The notes under the pieces were generated by a model. It did not search any database, was not told where the DNA came from, and saw only the letters and a program-made list of their open reading frames with translations. Shown piece by piece: positions 1,884 to 29,756 of a DNA stretch of 64,000 nt (its first letter is position 1; every line of letters starts with the position of its first letter). The position numbers and the translations under genes are program-made. Source of the stretch: Ruminococcus sp. UBA7158. Its GTDB lineage: Bacteria > Bacillota > Clostridia > Oscillospirales > Ruminococcaceae. The stretch is from positions 196 through 64,195 of the forward strand of contig DKWG01000066.1 in NCBI GenBank assembly GCA_002491605.1. Direction: 5' to 3'.

Positions 1884-4139
1884 CATACAATCAAGATAAA
1901 GTGCACCCTGAAGCTCACCTGTCGCTTTAAGCTCAACGGTATTATCGCCCTTATTGAGCTTAACTTCAATTGTGTATTCCTGCCAATCGCTTGCCGATGA
2001 GGTCTTGCCAAGGCTCAGAGAGGAAACCTTTTTGCCGTTTACATAAAGATTCAGCTTTGAAATTGACGCATCCGGAGAAGAATATCTCAGGGTAAGAGTA
2101 TACTTACCGTCCTCCAAGACACTTACATGGTCTAATACTGCGGCGTCTTCCTTGCTGCCGAATATCATGTAGCCCTGACCCTTAAAGCCGTCAACACCGC
2201 TGCGGCAGCCGTTGGGAAGGTTCTTCTGTATGCTGATGCTGTCAAAGTTTTCTGCCTCATACTGATGAGGACCATGGTAAACGGGAGGTCTTTTCGGCTC
2301 AACAAGTGTCGCCGTTTTGTATTCAGTGAGACGTCCTGATTCTGTGCCCTTTGCCGATATCTCGATATCGATAGGTCCGTTGTGTTCAATCGTAGCTGTG
2401 AACACGCCGCCCTCCCAGCTTGTATTGACCTTGCTTTTTACCTGTGACACTCCCCTGTCGTTATAGGTAAGAGTCGGTTCTTCTGTACAGCCATAAACCT
2501 TTATAACGTCAGTCTTGAGCTTAAATGCGCTCAAAAGCTCGTTATCATAGTTGTTTAGGTATATCTTGAGCGAATCGGCATACTCGCTTATAATTCCGCC
2601 GGAATACTGCGACAATGTCAGCTCCACCTTATCAGCGGTATTATATTTGAACGGAATAACGCCCTCGGCAGACTGTCCGGACTTGTACGGATTGTACACA
2701 GTCCATGTGTTGTCGCTCCTTCGAGCGTAAATGTCGCCTGTGTATTCCTCGGGGAACAGCTCATTCAGCTCGGCGAGCTTATTCTCCTCCTTGCCCCAGC
2801 GCTTGTTATACTCACTTGAGTTAATCTGAATTTCAAAGCCCTTTGCGGTATCGTCTGCAAGAGCATATACGGTTGGTATAGTCGGATATCTTCCTGACTT
2901 CTTGAAGAAGTTTCTGTTGTCACGGAGCATACCGTCGTTATCCATCTTATACAGCCCGTTGAACAGGGTCTTCGGCGAGCAGTATTTAGCGTCATCGTCG
3001 CCCTTATCGACGTCCTGAATTATAACCGCTTTAGTGTTATTTATTACCTCTTCACGGGTGGGTATTCTTATCGTGCCGTCCAAAACCTTTCTGAAGATAT
3101 CTATCATAACATTTTGGAACTGATCATACATCTCCCACTTTCTCGAGCTGTAGCCCTGCTCGGTTCTCTCGGCAGACGTCTCTCTGAAGCATTCGGTCCA
3201 GATAAGCTCAGGACCGTCTATAACAGTATAGCCCTGCTGCATCAGTCTTTCAAGGTGGATAGCAACGCCGGTTGCCATTGTAAACTTTGTATTTGTCTGA
3301 CCGTCGGGTCCTGTCCAGCCGGAGCCGTCGTATCTAAGACCTGCCTGACCTGAATAGCCCGAAAGATATGCGCCTAAAACCTGACTTTCAACATCGTGCA
3401 AATAGCCTACCTGAGTGTGCTTTTCACACAGAATGTAGTTTTCGGTATAGTCAAGGCAAGCCTGCTCAAATTCCGGCACCTGCTTAAGCATTGCAATAGG
3501 ATTGAGCGCCTGACCCCACTGATTTCCGCACCAGCTGACAACCAGATATCCGCCGTAGTCATGAGTTAGCTTTAAAAGATTGGTAAAATGCTTATATCTT
3601 TCGATGTAGGTTGTCGGGAAGTCCTCCTGGTCGAAGCCCCAGAACTGTTCGCAGTAGTTAAAGCCCAAAAAGTTCGGATAATCCCTGAAGAATTCTTCAA
3701 AAATTGTGTCCTTCATATCTGAGGGTTCTACATAATCCGGGAAATGGCACTGTCCGCCGCTGGCAGGCTGAATCATTGCCCAAACGTTTTTCTCAGCACA
3801 GGTTCTGAGCCATGATTTTGCGCACTCATAACCGTCGTTGACAAGTCCCCATGTTTTTGTGTCGCTGTCCCAGCTTATTGAAAGAGAAATGTTGAATACA
3901 ACATACGGCAAAATGTCCTCGGGGATTAAATCTATTATCTTTTCGGGGTCGGCATTGTTCCACGAGTCAATATGAACAATCCACATCGGCTGCTCTGTGG
4001 AAATAGGACGTCTCAATTCGCCGTTCGGCTCACAGACACTGACCGTTCTTTCAACCGTCGGCGACTGACCGCAGGCACAGCACGTTATAAGCATTAATAC
4101 AGCCATCAATGCACAAACGGCCTTCTTAAAATTTTTCAT
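1872..4139 (-). CDS. Secreted (lipoprotein-anchored) glycoside hydrolase with C-terminal CBM6/CBM35-like module; catalytic family possibly GH98-like (unverified)
   Basis: 755-aa ORF with a signal peptide and lipobox (LITCCAC). The catalytic region is acidic/aromatic-rich (NYCEQFWGFD, WCGNQWGQ). The C-terminal ~130 aa (YEAENF...GQGYMIFG...LTLRYSS...LYVNGKK...W.EYTIEVKLNKGDNTVELK) matches the CBM6/35 pattern. The GH98 idea comes from domain sizes and memory only. Confidence 0.7.
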   Translation of the reverse strand: MKNFKKAVCALMAVLMLITCCACGQSPTVERTVSVCEPNGELRRPISTEQPMWIVHIDSWNNADPEKIIDLIPEDILPYVVFNISLSISWDSDTKTWGLVNDGYECAKSWLRTCAEKNVWAMIQPASGGQCHFPDYVEPSDMKDTIFEEFFRDYPNFLGFNYCEQFWGFDQEDFPTTYIERYKHFTNLLKLTHDYGGYLVVSWCGNQWGQALNPIAMLKQVPEFEQACLDYTENYILCEKHTQVGYLHDVESQVLGAYLSGYSGQAGLRYDGSGWTGPDGQTNTKFTMATGVAIHLERLMQQGYTVIDGPELIWTECFRETSAERTEQGYSSRKWEMYDQFQNVMIDIFRKVLDGTIRIPTREEVINNTKAVIIQDVDKGDDDAKYCSPKTLFNGLYKMDNDGMLRDNRNFFKKSGRYPTIPTVYALADDTAKGFEIQINSSEYNKRWGKEENKLAELNELFPEEYTGDIYARRSDNTWTVYNPYKSGQSAEGVIPFKYNTADKVELTLSQYSGGIISEYADSLKIYLNNYDNELLSAFKLKTDVIKVYGCTEEPTLTYNDRGVSQVKSKVNTSWEGGVFTATIEHNGPIDIEISAKGTESGRLTEYKTATLVEPKRPPVYHGPHQYEAENFDSISIQKNLPNGCRSGVDGFKGQGYMIFGSKEDAAVLDHVSVLEDGKYTLTLRYSSPDASISKLNLYVNGKKVSSLSLGKTSSASDWQEYTIEVKLNKGDNTVELKATGELQGALYLDCMIIS

Positions 4140-4159
4140 TAATTTCTCCTCAAAGCGTA

Positions 4160-6424
4160 TTATGAGATAACGAAGTTATCAATATAAAGCTCATCTGCAA
4201 GTGTTGAATCAGCTTTAAGCTCAATCTTGTTTTCACCCTTATTGAGCTTAATCTTTGCAGATACCGTTCCCCACTTGCTTGTTGAACCTGTCTTCTTCAG
4301 ACTCAGAGTTTTTACCTTCTGACCGTTGACGTACAAAGCAAGACCTGATATATCGGCTTTCGCCGCCGCATACCTGAGTGTAAAGGTGTACTCACCGGAT
4401 TTGAGCGCTGTGACAGTATCTCGAACCGACGCTCCGCTCTTCTTTCCGAATATCAGATATCCCTGACCTTGGAAATTGTCAACTCCTGTGCGACAGCCGT
4501 TTTCGACATACTTATTGCAGTTTTTAATATCAAAGTGCTCTGCTTCGTACTGATAAGGTCCTGCGTATATCGGAGGTCTTGCAGGGGCTGTTATTCCTGA
4601 CTTTTTGTACTTTGTAAGCCTGTCTGTGTTTTTGCCCTTGGCATTTGTCACGGTTATATCAACAGGACCGTTGTGCTGTACCTTTACAGTCAGCACACCG
4701 TCCTTCCACAAAGTCGTTACCTTGCTCTTTGCCTGGCTTACTCCCCTGTCCTTATATGTAACCTTTGGCTCTTCTGTACAGCCGTAAATCTTAATAAGGT
4801 CAGTCTTTAAATCTGTAGACTTGGAAAGCTTGTTGTCGTAGTTATTCAGATAGAATTTGAGTGAATCCGAATACTCGGTTACAACGCCGCCGGAGTACCT
4901 TGAAAGCGACATCTCGAAGTAATCTGCGGTATTGTATCTGAAATTAACTCTTGCAGTTGCAGCCTTGCCTGATTTGAACGGATTATATACAGTCCACGCA
5001 TTTTCGGAGCTGCGAACATACATATTTCCTGCGTATTCTTTTTCAAAAATTTTGTTAAACTCTGCAACCTTCTTCTCAACTCTGCCCCAACGGGAAGCGT
5101 ATTTTGTATAGTTGACCTGATATTCAAACGATTTTGCCGCATCGTCTGCGAGATTATAAACCGTCGGAATTGTGGGATAGCGTCCTGTCTTCTTGAAGAA
5201 GTTGTGGTTATCCCTCAGGTTGCCGTCGTCGTCCATTCTGTAAAGTCCTTCAAATAAGGTCACAGGAGAGCAATACTTTCCGTCGTCAGAGGCATATTTA
5301 TTGTCCTGAATAATAACTACCTTTGTTCTTTCAATAACCTCTTCACGGCTGGGAATTCTTATCGTCCCGTCAATAAGCTTTCTGAATATGTCTATAGAAA
5401 TATTCTGGAACTGATCGGTCATCTTCCAGCTTCTATAGGTATAGCCCTGACTGTCTGTTTTCTTCCAATTCTCGTTGAAGTCGTCGTTCCAGATGAGCTC
5501 AGGACCGTCTATAACGGTAAAGCCGCACTGCATAAGACGTTCAATATGAGGCGCTATGCCGGTTGCAAGGGTGTAGTTCTTGTCGTGATCTCCGTTTTCG
5601 TCAGTCCAGCCGGTTGAGTCGTACCTTAAGCCTGCCTGTCCTGCATATCCGGAAAGGTATGCTCCCAAGACCTGACTTTCAACGTCCTGCAAATATCCGA
5701 CCTGAGTGTGCTTTTCGCAAAGAATATAGTTTTCGGTGTAATCAAGGCATGCCTTCTCAAACTCAGGAACCTGCTTAAGCATTGCAATAGGATTGAGCGC
5801 CTGACCCCACTGGTTTCCGCACCAGCTGACAACCAAATATCCGCCGTACTTATGAGTCAGCTTTAAAAGGTTGGCAAAATGCTGATATCTTTGTTTATAG
5901 GTTGTCGGAAAATCCTTTTGGTCAAAGCCCCAGAACTGTTCGCAGTAGTTAAAGCCCAAAAAGTTGGGATAGTCCCTGAAAAACTCACCGAAAAGGGTGT
6001 TTTCAAGGTCTGTGTTCGGCTCATAGTAGTCAGGGAAGTGGCACTGTCCGCCGCTTGCAGGCTGAATTAACGCCCACACGTTCTTTTCGGCGCAGGTTCT
6101 CAGCCATGACTTAGCCAGCTCATAACCGTCGTTTACCATGCCCCATGTATGAGTGTCGTGGTCATAGTTAATAGACATGGAAATATTGAAAACAACATAC
6201 GGCAAAATGTCCTCGGGAATAAGGTCAATTATCTTTGCCGGGTCGGCATAGTTCCATGTGTCGATATGTACAATCCACATCGGCTGCTCAGGTGAAACAG
6301 GTCGTCTGAGTGTTGGCTCTTTAGCTTTCGCAGTTGACTTTGTTGCCGCAAAAGCAGAAGTCGGCAGTATGCATACAGTCATAACCGCAGCCAACAGCAA
6401 GCTTATAAATCTTTTCAGCTTCAT
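4160..6424 (-). CDS. Secreted glycoside hydrolase, tandem paralog of 1872-4139, with C-terminal CBM6/CBM35-like module
   Basis: 754-aa ORF with a cleavable signal peptide (PTSAFAATKS). Long blocks are identical to the neighbour (QPMWIVHID.W, IIDLIPEDILPYVVFNIS, SWLRTCAEKNVWA.IQPASGGQCHFPDY, GGYLVVSWCGNQWGQALNPIAMLKQVPEFE). Only 20 nt separate the two genes. Confidence 0.7.
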   Translation of the reverse strand: MKLKRFISLLLAAVMTVCILPTSAFAATKSTAKAKEPTLRRPVSPEQPMWIVHIDTWNYADPAKIIDLIPEDILPYVVFNISMSINYDHDTHTWGMVNDGYELAKSWLRTCAEKNVWALIQPASGGQCHFPDYYEPNTDLENTLFGEFFRDYPNFLGFNYCEQFWGFDQKDFPTTYKQRYQHFANLLKLTHKYGGYLVVSWCGNQWGQALNPIAMLKQVPEFEKACLDYTENYILCEKHTQVGYLQDVESQVLGAYLSGYAGQAGLRYDSTGWTDENGDHDKNYTLATGIAPHIERLMQCGFTVIDGPELIWNDDFNENWKKTDSQGYTYRSWKMTDQFQNISIDIFRKLIDGTIRIPSREEVIERTKVVIIQDNKYASDDGKYCSPVTLFEGLYRMDDDGNLRDNHNFFKKTGRYPTIPTVYNLADDAAKSFEYQVNYTKYASRWGRVEKKVAEFNKIFEKEYAGNMYVRSSENAWTVYNPFKSGKAATARVNFRYNTADYFEMSLSRYSGGVVTEYSDSLKFYLNNYDNKLSKSTDLKTDLIKIYGCTEEPKVTYKDRGVSQAKSKVTTLWKDGVLTVKVQHNGPVDITVTNAKGKNTDRLTKYKKSGITAPARPPIYAGPYQYEAEHFDIKNCNKYVENGCRTGVDNFQGQGYLIFGKKSGASVRDTVTALKSGEYTFTLRYAAAKADISGLALYVNGQKVKTLSLKKTGSTSKWGTVSAKIKLNKGENKIELKADSTLADELYIDNFVIS

Positions 6425-7605: not shown

Positions 7606-7670
7606 ATTATAGCACGCCAATTATCGTTTGTCAATAACTGATTATCGATTAACGATAAAAAATTATCGTT
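7606..7670 (-). promoter_or_regulatory. Consensus sigma-A promoter (TTGACA-17-TATAAT) with an array of TTATCG/CGATAA operator-like half sites
   Basis: -10 at 7606-7611 and -35 at 7629-7634 (minus strand). AATTATCGTT occurs at 7619-7628 and 7661-7670, and the palindrome TTATCGATTAACGATAA at 7642-7658. Confidence 0.6.
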
Positions 7671-9177: not shown

Positions 9178-9461
9178 ATAAAAAACCTGTCCCAAAGCTT
9201 TACTGCCGGGACAGGATAAAATTCCTGCGGTGCCACCCTGCTTGACGATAAATAATCGTCCACTTGATTCGTACATCACAATACGACAGCTTTTTTCACG
9301 GAGGGCTTACTCCGTCGCACATACTAAAAATAACTCTGCGAATTATTTCGTTCCGATTGCCCTTAGAAGTCCATTCAGCTGCACATTACACACCGCTTCT
9401 CACCAAACAGCGGCTCTCTGAAGTATAATTGATGAAGCTTACTCACTCTTCCTCAACGGTT
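9178..9461 (-). promoter_or_regulatory. T-box riboswitch leader, specifier UGG (Trp)
   Basis: Read on the minus strand: AGAGAG box (9414-9419), specifier-loop context GAA-UGG-A (UGG = complement of 9371-9373), T-box core AGGGTGGCACCGCAG (9226-9239). Terminator CCTGTCCC/GGGACAGG (9186-9215) plus a T run. Confidence 0.8.
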
Positions 9462-9467
9462 TAACAC

Positions 9468-20506: not shown

Positions 20507-20535
20507 TTGACAAATGCCGTCCTACAAGATATAAT
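20507..20535 (+). promoter_or_regulatory. Consensus sigma-A promoter for tRNA-Pro (TTGACA-17-TATAAT)
   Basis: Exact hexamers at 20507-20512 and 20530-20535, with a 17-nt spacer. Confidence 0.7.
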
Positions 20536-20552: not shown

Positions 20553-20629
20553 CGAGGTGTAACTCAGTTTGGTAGAGTGCTTGGTTTGGGACCAAGATGC
20601 CGCAGGTTCGAGTCCTGTCACCTCGACCA
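20553..20629 (+). tRNA. tRNA-Pro (anticodon UGG), CCA encoded
   Basis: Manual cloverleaf: acceptor CGAGGTG/CACCTCG, D arm ACTC/GAGT, anticodon arm CTTGG-TTTGGGA-CCAAG, T arm GCAGG-TTCGAGT-CCTGT, discriminator A, then CCA. Total 77 nt. Confidence 0.9.
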
Positions 20630-26841: not shown

Positions 26842-28041
26842 CTATCCCTTGACAACCTTTACTACCTGCTTCTTGCCCTTTTTGATGATAGCGGCATCGG
26901 TTAAATCTACAACGGTATTGGCGTCAGTCACCTTTTGGTCGTTTAAGGTGACGCCACCCTGCTGGATAAGACGTCTTGCCTCGCCCTTGCTGGGTGCGAG
27001 CTTAGCGGCAATCATAGCGTCCAAAATTCCAACGCTGTCGGCTGATATTTCAACAGTCGGCATATTTTCGTTTGTTCCGGAGCCGCCGAATACTGCCTTT
27101 GCTACCGAAAGTGCCTTTTGAGCTTCCTCCTCGCCGTGGACAAGCTTTGTCAGCTCGTATGCCAAAATCTCCTTTGCCTTGTTGAGCTGTGAGCCTTCCC
27201 ATGAATCCATCTTGTCGATTTCCTCAAGAGGCAGGAAGGTAAGCATTCTTATACACTTCATAACATCGCTGTCCGCAACGTTGCGCCAGTACTGGAAGAA
27301 GTCATAAGGACTTGTCTTGTTGGGGTCAAGCCATACGGCGTTGCCTGCTGTTTTGCCCATCTTGTTGCCCTGAGAGTCGGTAAGAAGGGTTATTGTCATG
27401 CAGTGAGCGTCTTTTCCGAGTTTGCGCCTTATCAGCTCAGTTCCGCCGAGCATATTAGACCACTGGTCGTTTCCGCCGAACTGCATATTGCAGCCGTATT
27501 TCTGGAACATATAGTAGAAGTCATAGGACTGCATAATCATGTAGTTAAATTCAAGGAATGACAGTCCCTTTTCCATTCTCTGCTTATAGCACTCGGCACG
27601 AAGCATATTGTTGACCGAGAAGCAGGCTCCGACCTCTCTTAAAAGCTCGACATAGTTGAGGTTTAACAGCCAGTCGGCATTGTTGACCATCATAGCCTTG
27701 CCCTCGCCAAACTCAATAAAGCGCTCCATCTGACGACGGAAGCACTCGGCATTGTGGTCGATATCCTCTTTAGTCAGCATCTTTCTCATATCGGTTCTGC
27801 CGGACGGGTCGCCTATCATAGTAGTTCCACCACCGATTAAAGCTATAGGCTTATTTCCTGCCATCTGAAGCCTCTTCATAAGGGTCAGCGCCATGAAGTG
27901 ACCTGCCGTTAAGCTGTCTGCTGTGCAGTCAAAGCCGATATAGAATGTCGCCTTGCCGTTGTTGATCATTTCCTTTATTTCGTTTTCATCCGTGACCTGA
28001 GCTATAAGCCCTCTCGCCACTAATTCTTCATAAATGCCCAT
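26842..28041 (-). CDS. tyrS: Tyrosine--tRNA ligase
   Basis: MGIYEELVARGLIAQVTDE N-terminus, HIGH-type LTAGH, KMSKS-type KMGKT, and a C-terminal S4 domain. RBS GGAGGA lies 7 nt before the ATG at 28041. Confidence 0.92.
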   Translation of the reverse strand: MGIYEELVARGLIAQVTDENEIKEMINNGKATFYIGFDCTADSLTAGHFMALTLMKRLQMAGNKPIALIGGGTTMIGDPSGRTDMRKMLTKEDIDHNAECFRRQMERFIEFGEGKAMMVNNADWLLNLNYVELLREVGACFSVNNMLRAECYKQRMEKGLSFLEFNYMIMQSYDFYYMFQKYGCNMQFGGNDQWSNMLGGTELIRRKLGKDAHCMTITLLTDSQGNKMGKTAGNAVWLDPNKTSPYDFFQYWRNVADSDVMKCIRMLTFLPLEEIDKMDSWEGSQLNKAKEILAYELTKLVHGEEEAQKALSVAKAVFGGSGTNENMPTVEISADSVGILDAMIAAKLAPSKGEARRLIQQGGVTLNDQKVTDANTVVDLTDAAIIKKGKKQVVKVVKG

Positions 28042-28055
28042 GATTTTATCCTCCA

Positions 28056-28952
28056 TTATAAATTATAATCAAAAAAACTAAGCTGTGGGCTTTCATACCC
28101 TCTTTTGTATGCCTTGATGATTGAGCGCATTTCATACAGTATTCCATAGAGATCGCACTCGGCGGTGAAAACGTTCCAAAGCCTTCTTGCATTCGGAGAC
28201 GTACACCGATACCGCTCGCCGTAATACCTTTTGTATTTTTGGGACATCCCGGGGAACAGCTCATCAAGCTTATTATAAAAATGCTCACGCTGATTCATCC
28301 GAAGTGTCACCCCAAACGCCGGATATATACACTTTACTCCGCACTCATGCGCCATGCGTACTATTGAAAGAATGTTATCGGCGCTGTCCTCGATAAAGGG
28401 TAAAACAGGCATAAGGGTTATACCGGTGAAAAGCCCTGCTTCGGACATCCTTGCCAAAGCCTCAAACCTCTCGGACGACACAGAAACATTCGGCTCAATC
28501 AGCCTTGAAAGCTTGTCGTCAGCGGTAGTAACGGTCATCTTGCAAAGTACCGGTGAATGCTCTTGTATCTGCCTATACAGGTCGATATCCCGGGTTATGA
28601 GCGAGGACTTCGTTATCGTTGTCACACCAAAGCCGTATGCGTCAATGAGCATAAGCGACTTTTCAGTGAGCCGCTCCGTTTTTTCAAATGGATTATAAGG
28701 GTCACACATCGCTCCGGTTCCTATAACACCCGTCCTGACTTTGCGCCTAAGCTCATTAGCCAGTATCTCCATAGCGTTTTCCTTGGCACGAACTTTATCA
28801 AAGTTTTCGACATGATAACACTCACTTCTGCTGTCGCAATAGATGCAGCCATGGCAGCAGCCGCGATACAGGTTCATGTTGTAGTCGTTTCCGAACCATT
28901 CGTCCGACTTGTTCTTTTGAAGAATTGTCTTTGCGGCAACGTATTGCACCAT
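28056..28952 (-). CDS. Radical SAM protein of the SPL / 'DNA repair photolyase' (COG1533-like) family
   Basis: CX3CX2C cluster motif in YRGCCHGCIYCDS near the N-terminus. It is about 300 aa long, typical of that family. Its stop lies 14 nt before the tyrS start. Confidence 0.75.
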   Translation of the reverse strand: MVQYVAAKTILQKNKSDEWFGNDYNMNLYRGCCHGCIYCDSRSECYHVENFDKVRAKENAMEILANELRRKVRTGVIGTGAMCDPYNPFEKTERLTEKSLMLIDAYGFGVTTITKSSLITRDIDLYRQIQEHSPVLCKMTVTTADDKLSRLIEPNVSVSSERFEALARMSEAGLFTGITLMPVLPFIEDSADNILSIVRMAHECGVKCIYPAFGVTLRMNQREHFYNKLDELFPGMSQKYKRYYGERYRCTSPNARRLWNVFTAECDLYGILYEMRSIIKAYKRGYESPQLSFFDYNL

Positions 28953-28960
28953 ATCACCCC

Positions 28961-29241
28961 AAAATAAAAACGCCCTCGATGAGTATAAAACTCAAAGAGG
29001 GCGATTAAATCTAAACCGCTGTACCACCTCAATTTGCCAAGTGCATATTAAACGCAAGCTTGACCTCAAGGGCGCTGTAACGTGCGCAAAACGCATACTC
29101 CTACTTTACCGCTTCACATAAAGCGCTGTTCAGAATACAAACTCCAAGATGTATTCACACGCCGCATAACGCTTTCTCACACCGACCGAAAGCTCTCTTG
29201 AGTTAAAATCATGCGTGCTACTTCTTCTTTTCACAGTCATT
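28961..29241 (-). promoter_or_regulatory. T-box riboswitch leader, specifier UAC (Tyr)
   Basis: Read on the minus strand: AGAGAG (29193-29198), GAA-UAC-A specifier context (UAC = complement of 29151-29153), T-box core AATTGAGGTGGTACAGCGG (29016-29034). Terminator CGCCCTC/GAGGGCG (28971-29003) plus TTTTTATTTT. Confidence 0.8.
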
Positions 29242-29247
29242 GTCGAC

Positions 29248-29276
29248 ATATTAACACGATTAATTGATTTTGTCAA
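29248..29276 (-). promoter_or_regulatory. Sigma-A promoter of the Tyr T-box operon (TTGACA-17-TAATAT)
   Basis: Plus-strand ATATTA at 29248-29253 and TGTCAA at 29271-29276. Confidence 0.6.
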
Positions 29277-29327
29277 GAGACAAAGCACAAATTTTGTCTT
29301 TCATGCGCAGACGGTTTTTATTAAATG

Positions 29328-29356
29328 TTGCAATTTGTAAAATAATGTGTTATAAT
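29328..29356 (+). promoter_or_regulatory. Sigma-A promoter with extended -10 (TTGCAA-17-TGtTATAAT) driving the small-peptide transcript
   Basis: -35 at 29328-29333, TG at 29348-29349, -10 at 29351-29356. Confidence 0.6.
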
Positions 29357-29494
29357 CTTGCTGCAAGGCGGCAATGAAGGTCAGTTTTGTTGCCAGTCGG
29401 ACTTCGCAATAGCAAACGATTGCTTACAGAGCATTGACGGATAGAATCCGACTTTCAAAGGTTGTTCACTTCCTATTGCGGGAGGTGAGTGCAT

Positions 29495-29599
29495 ATGAGT
29501 AATGTATATGTTACATTAAGCGATATGCTTAATTACACTATTGTACTTATATCACTTGTTACTCTGGTAATAGCTATTATCAGCAATAACAAGAAATAA
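29495..29599 (+). CDS. 34-aa hydrophobic peptide, candidate type I toxin (BsrG / 'holin-like toxin'-like pattern)
   Basis: Encodes MSNVYVTLSDMLNYTIVLISLVTLVIAIISNNKK. SD GGAGGTG lies 7 nt upstream. The peptide has a single TM helix and a KK tail. It is absent from the ORF track only because of the 60-aa cutoff. Confidence 0.55.
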   Translation: MSNVYVTLSDMLNYTIVLISLVTLVIAIISNNKK

Positions 29600-29690
29600 C
29601 CGCCCACCATAGCGGTGAACGGCGTTTCCTACAACTCAAAATTGTTTTACAGGAACGACCGCCACTAGCGATGGCAAGCCGCCTTGTTCT
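29585..29690 (-). ncRNA. Predicted ~100-nt antisense RNA (candidate type I antitoxin) overlapping the 3' UTR and last codons of the peptide gene
   Basis: It is bounded by the minus-strand promoter at 29697-29724 and a minus-strand hairpin CGCCGTTCACC...GGTGGGCGG (29600-29624) followed by TTATTTCTTGTTATT. Confidence 0.4.
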
Positions 29691-29696
29691 TTAATT

Positions 29697-29724
29697 ATTA
29701 TAACACGAAATATCAATCTGTCAA
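29697..29724 (-). promoter_or_regulatory. Sigma-A promoter with extended -10 (TTGACA-16-TGtTATAAT) pointing antisense into the peptide gene 3' region
   Basis: Plus-strand ATTATAACA at 29697-29705 and TGTCAA at 29719-29724. Confidence 0.6.
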
Positions 29725-29756
29725 CCGTTCCGAAAGAATTTTTCGGAGCGGTTTTT
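29725..29756 (+). terminator. Rho-independent terminator of the peptide transcript
   Basis: 11-bp stem CCGTTCCGAAA / TTTCGGAGCGG followed by TTTTT. Confidence 0.7.

Follow-up and report, generated by a model that had tools for sequence, protein, structure and literature searches.

Toxin-antitoxin (TA) modules of type I in the TxpA/BsrG/SprG group couple the gene of a short toxic peptide to a convergent antisense RNA that covers the 3' end of the toxin mRNA. Probing of the bsrG mRNA revealed a helix, P1, formed between 5' nucleotides (nt) 1-35 and 3' nt 232-262, a ribosome-binding sequence held in a stem, and a terminator right after P1 (PMC3834814). The antitoxin SprF1 acts via overlapping 3' ends (PMC8309996), the 3' untranslated region (UTR) of EF3263, a relative of TxpA, is overlapped by an antisense RNA of ~110 nt (PMC2887945), and silencing of the txpA/RatA type is expected to depend on RNase III (PMC6563280). 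For TxpA-like sequences in Clostridia the literature consulted names only Clostridium bolteae (PMC6563280), and among the papers listed by a literature search on these toxins none mentions Ruminococcus. Here we describe a cassette of 433 nt adjoining sigG in a gut Ruminococcus, at positions 29324-29756 of a 64,000-nt stretch of contig DKWG01000066.1 from Ruminococcus sp. UBA7158 (the window). From its predicted features, the cassette is probably a type I TA module of the TxpA/BsrG/SprG (Hol_Tox) kind, a reading to which we assign a probability of about 0.78. As such it is an undescribed representative of a well-known kind of system, and it adds no new class of mechanism.

An earlier note, drawn by a model from the letters of this DNA, had proposed a type I TA-like locus here, an interpretation that our analyses support in silico. 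The elements on which it relied were found again, i.e., a plus-strand promoter and a strong terminator bounding the mRNA, a hairpin over the Shine-Dalgarno (SD) sequence, an ATG at 29495 opening a peptide with a single transmembrane (TM) helix and a KK tail, and a minus-strand promoter with a hairpin and U tract yielding an antisense RNA of about 100 nt. The 5'-3' clamp that it described also pairs as proposed, although its 5' arm had been placed one base off. The cassette comprises the following features, in which ORF stands for open reading frame.

29324-29756, plus strand: whole cassette; BLASTN and nhmmer homology to three other contigs (L099, L100 and L102) begins at 29324 and ends at 29756, with unrelated flanks.
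29328-29356, plus strand: promoter of the toxin mRNA, TTGCAA-17-TGtTATAAT, of the sigma-A type with an extended -10 element (10/12 in the promoter scan).
29364-29372, plus strand: 5' arm of the clamp, CAAGGCGGC, pairing with 29678-29686.
~29384-29435, plus strand: accessory leader hairpin, an insertion of ~51 nt that contains CGCAATAG (29405-29412), complementary to the loop of the SD hairpin.
29460-29467, plus strand: 5' arm of a second long-range helix, GGUUGUUC, found in the consensus fold.
29467-29487, plus strand: SD hairpin, CACUUCC-UAUUGCG-GGAGGUG, made of CACTTCC (29467-29473), a loop, and the SD sequence GGAGGTG (29481-29487).
29495-29599, plus strand: candidate toxin ORF, MSNVYVTLSDMLNYTIVLISLVTLVIAIISNNKK, 34 residues and a stop codon (from the ORF listing and family matches).
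29589-29623, minus strand: intrinsic terminator of the antisense RNA, with a stem at 29623-29599 and a U-rich tail to ~29589 (terminator scan).
29590-29690, minus strand: predicted antisense RNA of ~100 nt with three hairpins, complementary along its entire length to the toxin 3' UTR.
29653-29660, plus strand: 3' arm of the second long-range helix, GAACGACC, pairing with GGUUGUUC.
29678-29686, plus strand: 3' arm of the clamp, GCCGCCTTG / GCCGCCUUG, invariant in all copies; its complement forms nt ~5-13 of the antisense RNA.
29724-29697, minus strand: antisense promoter, TTGACA-16-TGtTATAAT, with an extended -10 element (12/12 in the promoter scan).
29723-29756, plus strand: intrinsic terminator of the toxin mRNA, a 13-pair stem followed by U5, which folds and whose 5' base overlaps the antisense -35 element.

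The antisense promoter lies between the 3' arm of the clamp and the mRNA terminator and is convergent with the toxin promoter. The 64-kb window contains 3 perfect TTGACA-N16-18-TATAAT arrangements, where shuffled sequences lead one to expect 0.04. The other two perfect-consensus sigma-A promoters are at 7606-7634 (minus) and at 20507-20535 (plus), the latter just upstream of tRNA-Pro(UGG) (20553-20629).

The RNA predicted from the antisense promoter spans the 3' partners of both long-range helices as well as the stop codon, and its terminator lies across the end of the ORF, including the stop codon and the codons just before it. On the minus strand, 4 of the terminator's 11 pairs are G.U pairs, whose plus-strand counterparts would be mismatches of C with A. 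For the region as a whole, the folding energy is -39.6 kcal/mol (z = -3.4) on the minus strand and -25.0 kcal/mol (z = -2.0) on the plus strand. In an RNAalifold consensus of five variants of the antisense RNA the three-hairpin plan is kept, with compensatory changes in 4 of 36 pairs, this covariation being drawn from just 4-6 distinct sequences. Three positions of the antisense terminator are changed in one variant (L092) with pairing retained, and in another (L100A) the stem is shortened yet intact. The toxin 3' UTR holds both the promoter and the terminator of a predicted antisense gene. A minus-strand ORF of 26 residues at 29636-29716 was rejected as a candidate, its start being upstream of the predicted transcription start site of the antisense RNA.

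On the plus strand, transcription is predicted to start near 29363, which gives a leader of ~132 nt (about 130 nt in the earlier note) and a toxin mRNA of ~395 nt. The segment 29362-29760 has a minimum free energy (MFE) of -130.3 kcal/mol, against -92.8 +/- 5.7 kcal/mol for shuffled sequences (z = -6.56), and its MFE structure includes the clamp, the SD hairpin and the 13-pair terminator. A simple terminator scan skipped the latter solely through the way in which it counts T runs. The clamp, for which the 5' arm had first been given as 29365-29373, has a pair probability of 0.96-1.0 throughout in five of six natural variants; in L091, a C to U change turns its outermost pair into G.U, with a probability of 0.72. 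The SD hairpin pairs with a probability of 0.94-0.99 in five of the six, and in L099 its outermost pair is at 0.38 and the remaining six at 0.89-0.94. In the second long-range helix, U-A / U.G swaps in L092 and L099 retain pairing, and consensus folds preserve this helix as well as the clamp. The SD sequence is contained in a hairpin of 7-9 bp, the AUG region is predicted to pair with the interior of the ORF, and base pairing is predicted over a large share of the ORF. The SD lies at the ideal spacing of 7 nt from the ATG; a GTG at 29489, just 1 nt from the SD, was discarded as a start codon.

This predicted plan resembles that of the probed bsrG mRNA (PMC3834814), in line with the 3'-overlapping layout that the earlier note had recognized by comparison with bsrG/SR4 and txpA/RatA. 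Predicted in silico at this locus are a convergent antitoxin over the toxin 3' end, an mRNA closed by a 5'-3' helix, a stem that sequesters the SD and, downstream of the helix, a terminator. The two systems differ in their dimensions. The antisense RNA is ~100 nt long and fully complementary here, whereas SR4 has 183 nt, of which just ~123 nt overlap bsrG. In place of the interrupted 35-nt helix P1, the module has a perfect clamp of 9-10 bp and a second helix of 8 bp. Between the clamp and the mRNA terminator lie ~37 unpaired nt, which include the antisense promoter; in bsrG this distance is one nucleotide. The settings differ as well, since bsrG/SR4 belongs to the SPbeta prophage of Bacillus subtilis and the present module is a terminator-bounded cassette found at chromosomal intergenic sites of a gut anaerobe of the Clostridia.

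Other described systems share parts of this organization. txpA/RatA of the B. subtilis skin element and EF3263 of Enterococcus faecalis have the same layout and show PF16935 kinship, and the ~110-nt antisense RNA of EF3263 is of the same size class as the one predicted here. TxpA differs by its length of 59 residues and its long hydrophilic tail. sprG1 of Staphylococcus aureus encodes two nested peptides, of 44 and 31 residues, from two starts, whereas a single ATG with an SD is present here. In hok/Sok, too, the full-length toxin mRNA is shut by pairing between its 5' and 3' parts, but the toxin belongs to an unrelated Gram-negative family and the target of Sok is the 5' leader (mok) instead of the 3' UTR.

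The encoded peptide has the characteristics of a type I toxin, i.e., fewer than 60 residues, one predicted TM helix (best 19-residue Kyte-Doolittle window 2.47, residues 11-29) and a charged C-terminal tail, NNKK. The earlier note had remarked on its BsrG-like pattern, and searches bear this out, with scores below the curated cut-offs where these are given. The match to the Pfam family Hol_Tox (PF16935) covers residues 11-34 at 17.5 bits (E = 0.0038), under the gathering threshold of 23.3 bits. The top NCBIfam match, PepG1 (NF041589), scores 23.7 bits (E = 2.7e-5) against an equivalog cut-off of 70 bits, as for a distant relative rather than an equivalog. PHROG 3488, labeled 'holin', matches with E = 1.9e-4, and the sole match in the PDB is 7NS1_A (E = 0.03), the nuclear magnetic resonance structure of the 31-residue SprG1 peptide. 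By BLASTP, the best protein match is PepG1 of the sprG1 system, with 41% identity over 34 residues (E = 1e-7), and identity to BsrG is merely 31% (E = 0.012). Comparison by hhalign with BsrG, TxpA, SprG1-31 and BsrE gave a probability of 87.5% (E = 3.6e-6). As a check on the reference sequences used, BsrG, TxpA, PepG1 and BsrE score 31-48 bits on PF16935, above its cut-off, and residues 14-44 of the PepG1 sequence match the 7NS1 chain.

These similarities extend to local features. The peptide and BsrG, both short and of a single helix, share the motif (V/T)Y-x-(S/T)-L-x-x-M-(I/L)-N-(F/Y) in their N-terminal part and KK(K) at the C-terminal end, and the C terminus of SprG1, SNKK, corresponds to SNNKK here. 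None of 10 shuffled peptides, five of them keeping the NNKK tail, matched Hol_Tox or PepG1, and the database matches of the natural peptide are confined to the TxpA/BsrG/SprG group. At the sequence level, its similarity to the Hol_Tox group is therefore specific and not merely compositional, and the peptide is distantly related to the TxpA/BsrG/SprG group without being a member by curated thresholds. A phmmer search of 1.84 billion representative proteins returned just one relative, a variant with 97% identity, and tblastn found none in plasmids and one non-significant match in phages (E = 2). The earlier note had described the ORF as unannotated and invisible to gene listings. It indeed has no name or Pfam hit on public contigs, although it does appear there as an anonymous gene; the ORF is therefore uncharacterized rather than strictly unannotated. 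An Rfam search of 29324-29756 gave no family at E <= 10 apart from a chance match to VrrA (E = 8.9).

Several observations weigh against a TA module, and some of them leave room for a small non-toxin membrane protein, regulatory or accessory, whose level the antisense RNA merely tunes. The family scores are under their cut-offs, and the subfamily, as sampled, is very small. Support from covariation comes from the handful of distinct sequences mentioned above, and the clamp and SD hairpin are invariant, so that their pairing is backed by conservation and thermodynamics, not by covariation. In addition, some members of such families proved harmless in tests, as with YhzE-2, which was predicted to be a type I toxin and has an antisense RNA, but which Fozo et al. 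found to be non-toxic in its own host (PMC2887945), and BsrG itself does not permeabilize membranes (PMC8309996). We nevertheless consider a non-toxin protein unlikely. The closest relatives of the peptide, PepG1/SprG1, BsrG and TxpA, are all proven toxins, and the predicted silencing of translation in several layers is typical of toxin mRNAs. The multi-copy, patchy distribution of the cassette at hot spots, one of which has also taken up a type II TA pair in a relative (see below), is the behavior of a selfish module.

By analogy with bsrG/SR4, txpA/RatA and sprG1/SprF1, a type I TA module of this design would work as follows. The full-length folded mRNA, closed by the clamp CAAGGCGGC/GCCGCCUUG and, beside the ribosome-binding site, by the helix GGUUGUUC/GAACGACC, would be poorly translated. 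The antisense RNA would pair with the 3' UTR and displace both long-range helices, because it is identical at its 5' end to the 5' end of the mRNA, and the long duplex formed would be a substrate for RNase III. Cleavage would lead to decay of the mRNA, possibly along with a tighter block of the SD. If the unstable antisense RNA were lost, the 34-residue peptide would be made. As a single helix it would insert in the membrane, the NNKK tail being positioned near the head groups of the lipids. It would damage the membrane or cell envelope and stop growth or kill the cell.

The cassette occurs in other genomic contexts, which allowed us to compare natural variants. The V4I variant of the peptide (P0002) sits on a human-gut contig (L099) downstream of VTC and DUF4956 genes, and DNA homology between the window and this contig, at ~76% identity, extends over 29324-29756 and ends exactly at the promoter and at the terminator. 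Identity, expressed as a percentage of the longer sequence, is very uneven between the two. It is 100% in the SD block (29460-29494, 35 of 35 nt), 97% in the ORF (102 of 105 nt, with V4I and two synonymous changes) and 83-84% in the two promoter/terminator regions, and it drops to 45% in the leader and 54% in the 3' UTR, the lengths of which also differ by insertions. The ORF at another sigG site (L095) has one further synonymous change, so that the copies together show three synonymous changes and one conservative change (V4I).

The diverged copies retain the promoter and the terminator of each transcript, together with the clamp and the SD hairpin. In the toxin promoter, the -10 element, the TG and the 17-nt spacing are unchanged in L099, L100B and L105 while the spacer sequence varies; L099 and L100B also keep TTGCAA as the -35 element, for which L105 has TTGCAC. 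The hexamers, TG and 16-nt spacing of the antisense promoter are likewise unchanged in L099 and L100A, with a different spacer sequence. The leader insertion of ~51 nt, in contrast, is present only in the copies at the sigG site, and L099 and L100B are without it. This bears on the proposal, made in the earlier note, that CTATTGCG (29473-29480) may pair with CGCAATAG in competition with a local GCAAT/ATTGC hairpin. The two segments are exact complements, as are GCAAT (29406-29410) and ATTGC (29419-29423). The MFE fold does not use the CGCAATAG segment against the SD hairpin, and the insertion that carries it is lacking from the other copies. The alternative pairing is thus real in the window copy, but it is an accessory and not a core feature.

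At least three copies of the cassette are found in one metagenome (ULUB01), two contigs of which (L100 and L102) stop at the base before the ATG. Contigs in the Logan collection that have the same sigG stop at the stop codon, at 29599. One of the ULUB01 contigs (L100) begins inside a paralogous toxin ORF (...LLNLLAVVIFGVINITKKK*), whose C terminus has diverged while remaining hydrophobic with a KKK tail and whose 3' UTR is 78% identical to that of the window; upstream of the next module's promoter, the contig also has what is left of a decayed 3' UTR. In L099, L102 and L100, one and the same terminator hairpin of ~36 nt, that of the toxin mRNA, stands on either side of the module, and empty sites (L113 and L115) have exactly one copy of it. 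By these alignments, 29324-29756 is a discrete, multi-copy and evidently mobile module.

Short-read contigs from many samples end at the ORF borders (29494 and 29599) or in the clamp or terminator; those that break at the cassette are L003-L008, L100, L102 and L105-L109. Assemblies break at the ORF borders because a near-identical ORF is repeated. In a metagenome-assembled genome (MAG; GCA_002490945.1, L114 3680-4370), runs of N flank a copy of the terminator downstream of DUF4956, and these are probably scaffold gaps where the repeated cassette failed to assemble. Between two cassettes lies the gene of a cysteine-rich protein of 292 residues, with a signal-peptide-like N terminus and no Pfam domain (L100 324-1202, minus strand). 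It also occurs on L103-L112; with repeats flanking the gene, every contig that has it is shorter than 1.5 kb.

Such properties raise the question of whether the cassette might be a repeated intergenic RNA or terminator element, such as an insulating terminator cassette or the gene of a small RNA, in which the ORF is incidental. Terminator repeats bound the module and solo terminators mark the empty sites, assemblies break on it as they do on a repeat, and the predicted pairing of much of the ORF would also fit. However, the ORF is the most conserved long stretch of the cassette, at 97% compared with 45-54% in the UTRs, and its few changes are synonymous or conservative. The strong, ideally spaced SD, the hydrophobic C terminus and KKK tail kept by the paralogue despite its divergence, and the specific likeness to known toxins, absent from shuffled peptides, also argue for a translated product. 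We therefore regard an RNA or terminator element as very improbable.

Exchange between copies is suggested by a palindromic insert of 54 nt, AAAATGATTTGC...GCAAATCATTTT, which enlarges the loop of the antisense-terminator hairpin in L095 (3117-3170) and L099 (~3117-3170). It is not in the window copy and is common to a sigG site (L095) and the DUF4956 site (L099), which suggests gene conversion between copies, or else a tiny hairpin insertion element. At the DUF4956 site, a relative with 86% identity (L118) has a type II Phd/YefM-Fic pair directly downstream of DUF4956 (3787-4403), at the spot taken by the cassette in L099 and L102 and by the solo terminator in L113 and L115. This site looks like a hot spot for addiction modules.

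The site next to sigG provides another comparison. In related species, 80 loci around the radical S-adenosylmethionine (radical-SAM) gene contain nothing homologous to the peptide or to either of the UTRs. sigG is upstream of the radical-SAM gene in three of the 80; the gap between sigG and the T-box operon is 308 and 406 nt in two of these, versus 851 nt in the window, and the third has a gap of 928 nt with a T-box, an extra gene of 189 codons and no TA module. On this comparison the cassette is a species-level insertion. It is absent from the related loci, and conservation across related genomes is therefore unusable as a test.

These data invite a more specific and tentative reading, which we rate as doubtful overall. 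The cassette may be a self-contained mobile unit whose ends are ~36-nt direct repeats of its own terminator, gained and lost by recombination at hot spots that also accept type II TA modules, possibly with an anti-sequestering switch in the sigG copy. Recombination at the terminator hairpins is proposed because occupied sites have the order terminator-module-terminator, empty sites have one terminator, and copies swap segments. As to the switch, the ~51-nt insertion in the leader of the sigG copy, with its 8-nt perfect complement CGCAAUAG to the loop of the SD hairpin, could license translation under some condition.

The chromosomal surroundings of the cassette are sigG, sigE and spoIIGA on one flank and, on the other, a T-box leader (28994-29243, Rfam 125 bits) followed by the radical-SAM gene and tyrS. 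The nearest relatives of the radical-SAM protein are in Ruminococcus MAGs and R. albus, at no more than 81% identity. A remnant phage holin gene, as the PHROG 3488 match and the name of the Pfam family ('holin-like toxin') might suggest, is the least probable explanation, at odds with the housekeeping genes around it (sigG, sigE, spoIIGA and the T-box-radical-SAM-tyrS operon), where there are no phage genes and no lysis cassette, with the absence of any match in exact-pattern scans of viral contigs (SD block; clamp and antisense -10; antisense -35 and terminator; paralogue ORF tail) or of any significant one in the phage and plasmid searches, and with a stand-alone 433-nt cassette that has its own promoters and terminators.

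The neighboring operon, at 26842-29276 of the window, has features of its own. Its Tyr T-box promoter, TTGACA-17-TAATAT, is at 29276-29248 (minus), the radical-SAM gene at 28056-28952 (minus) and tyrS directly after it at 26842-28056. tyrS again directly follows the radical-SAM gene in both related loci with gene tables (L001 and L089), and a T-box-like sequence precedes that gene in several other related loci. The presence of a radical-SAM enzyme within a Tyr T-box operon is unexplained. A second T-box leader is found in the window at 9204-9465 (minus, 101.8 bits).

In the reading that we favor, a type I TA module, the locus extends the TxpA/BsrG/SprG group to the abundant gut Oscillospiraceae. 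With its 433 nt it offers a compact and delimited model, in which natural variants separate the core from the accessory RNA elements. Its near-identical ORF copies explain why short-read assemblies break at these sites, and a profile of the cassette could serve for the annotation of such loci in gut MAGs.

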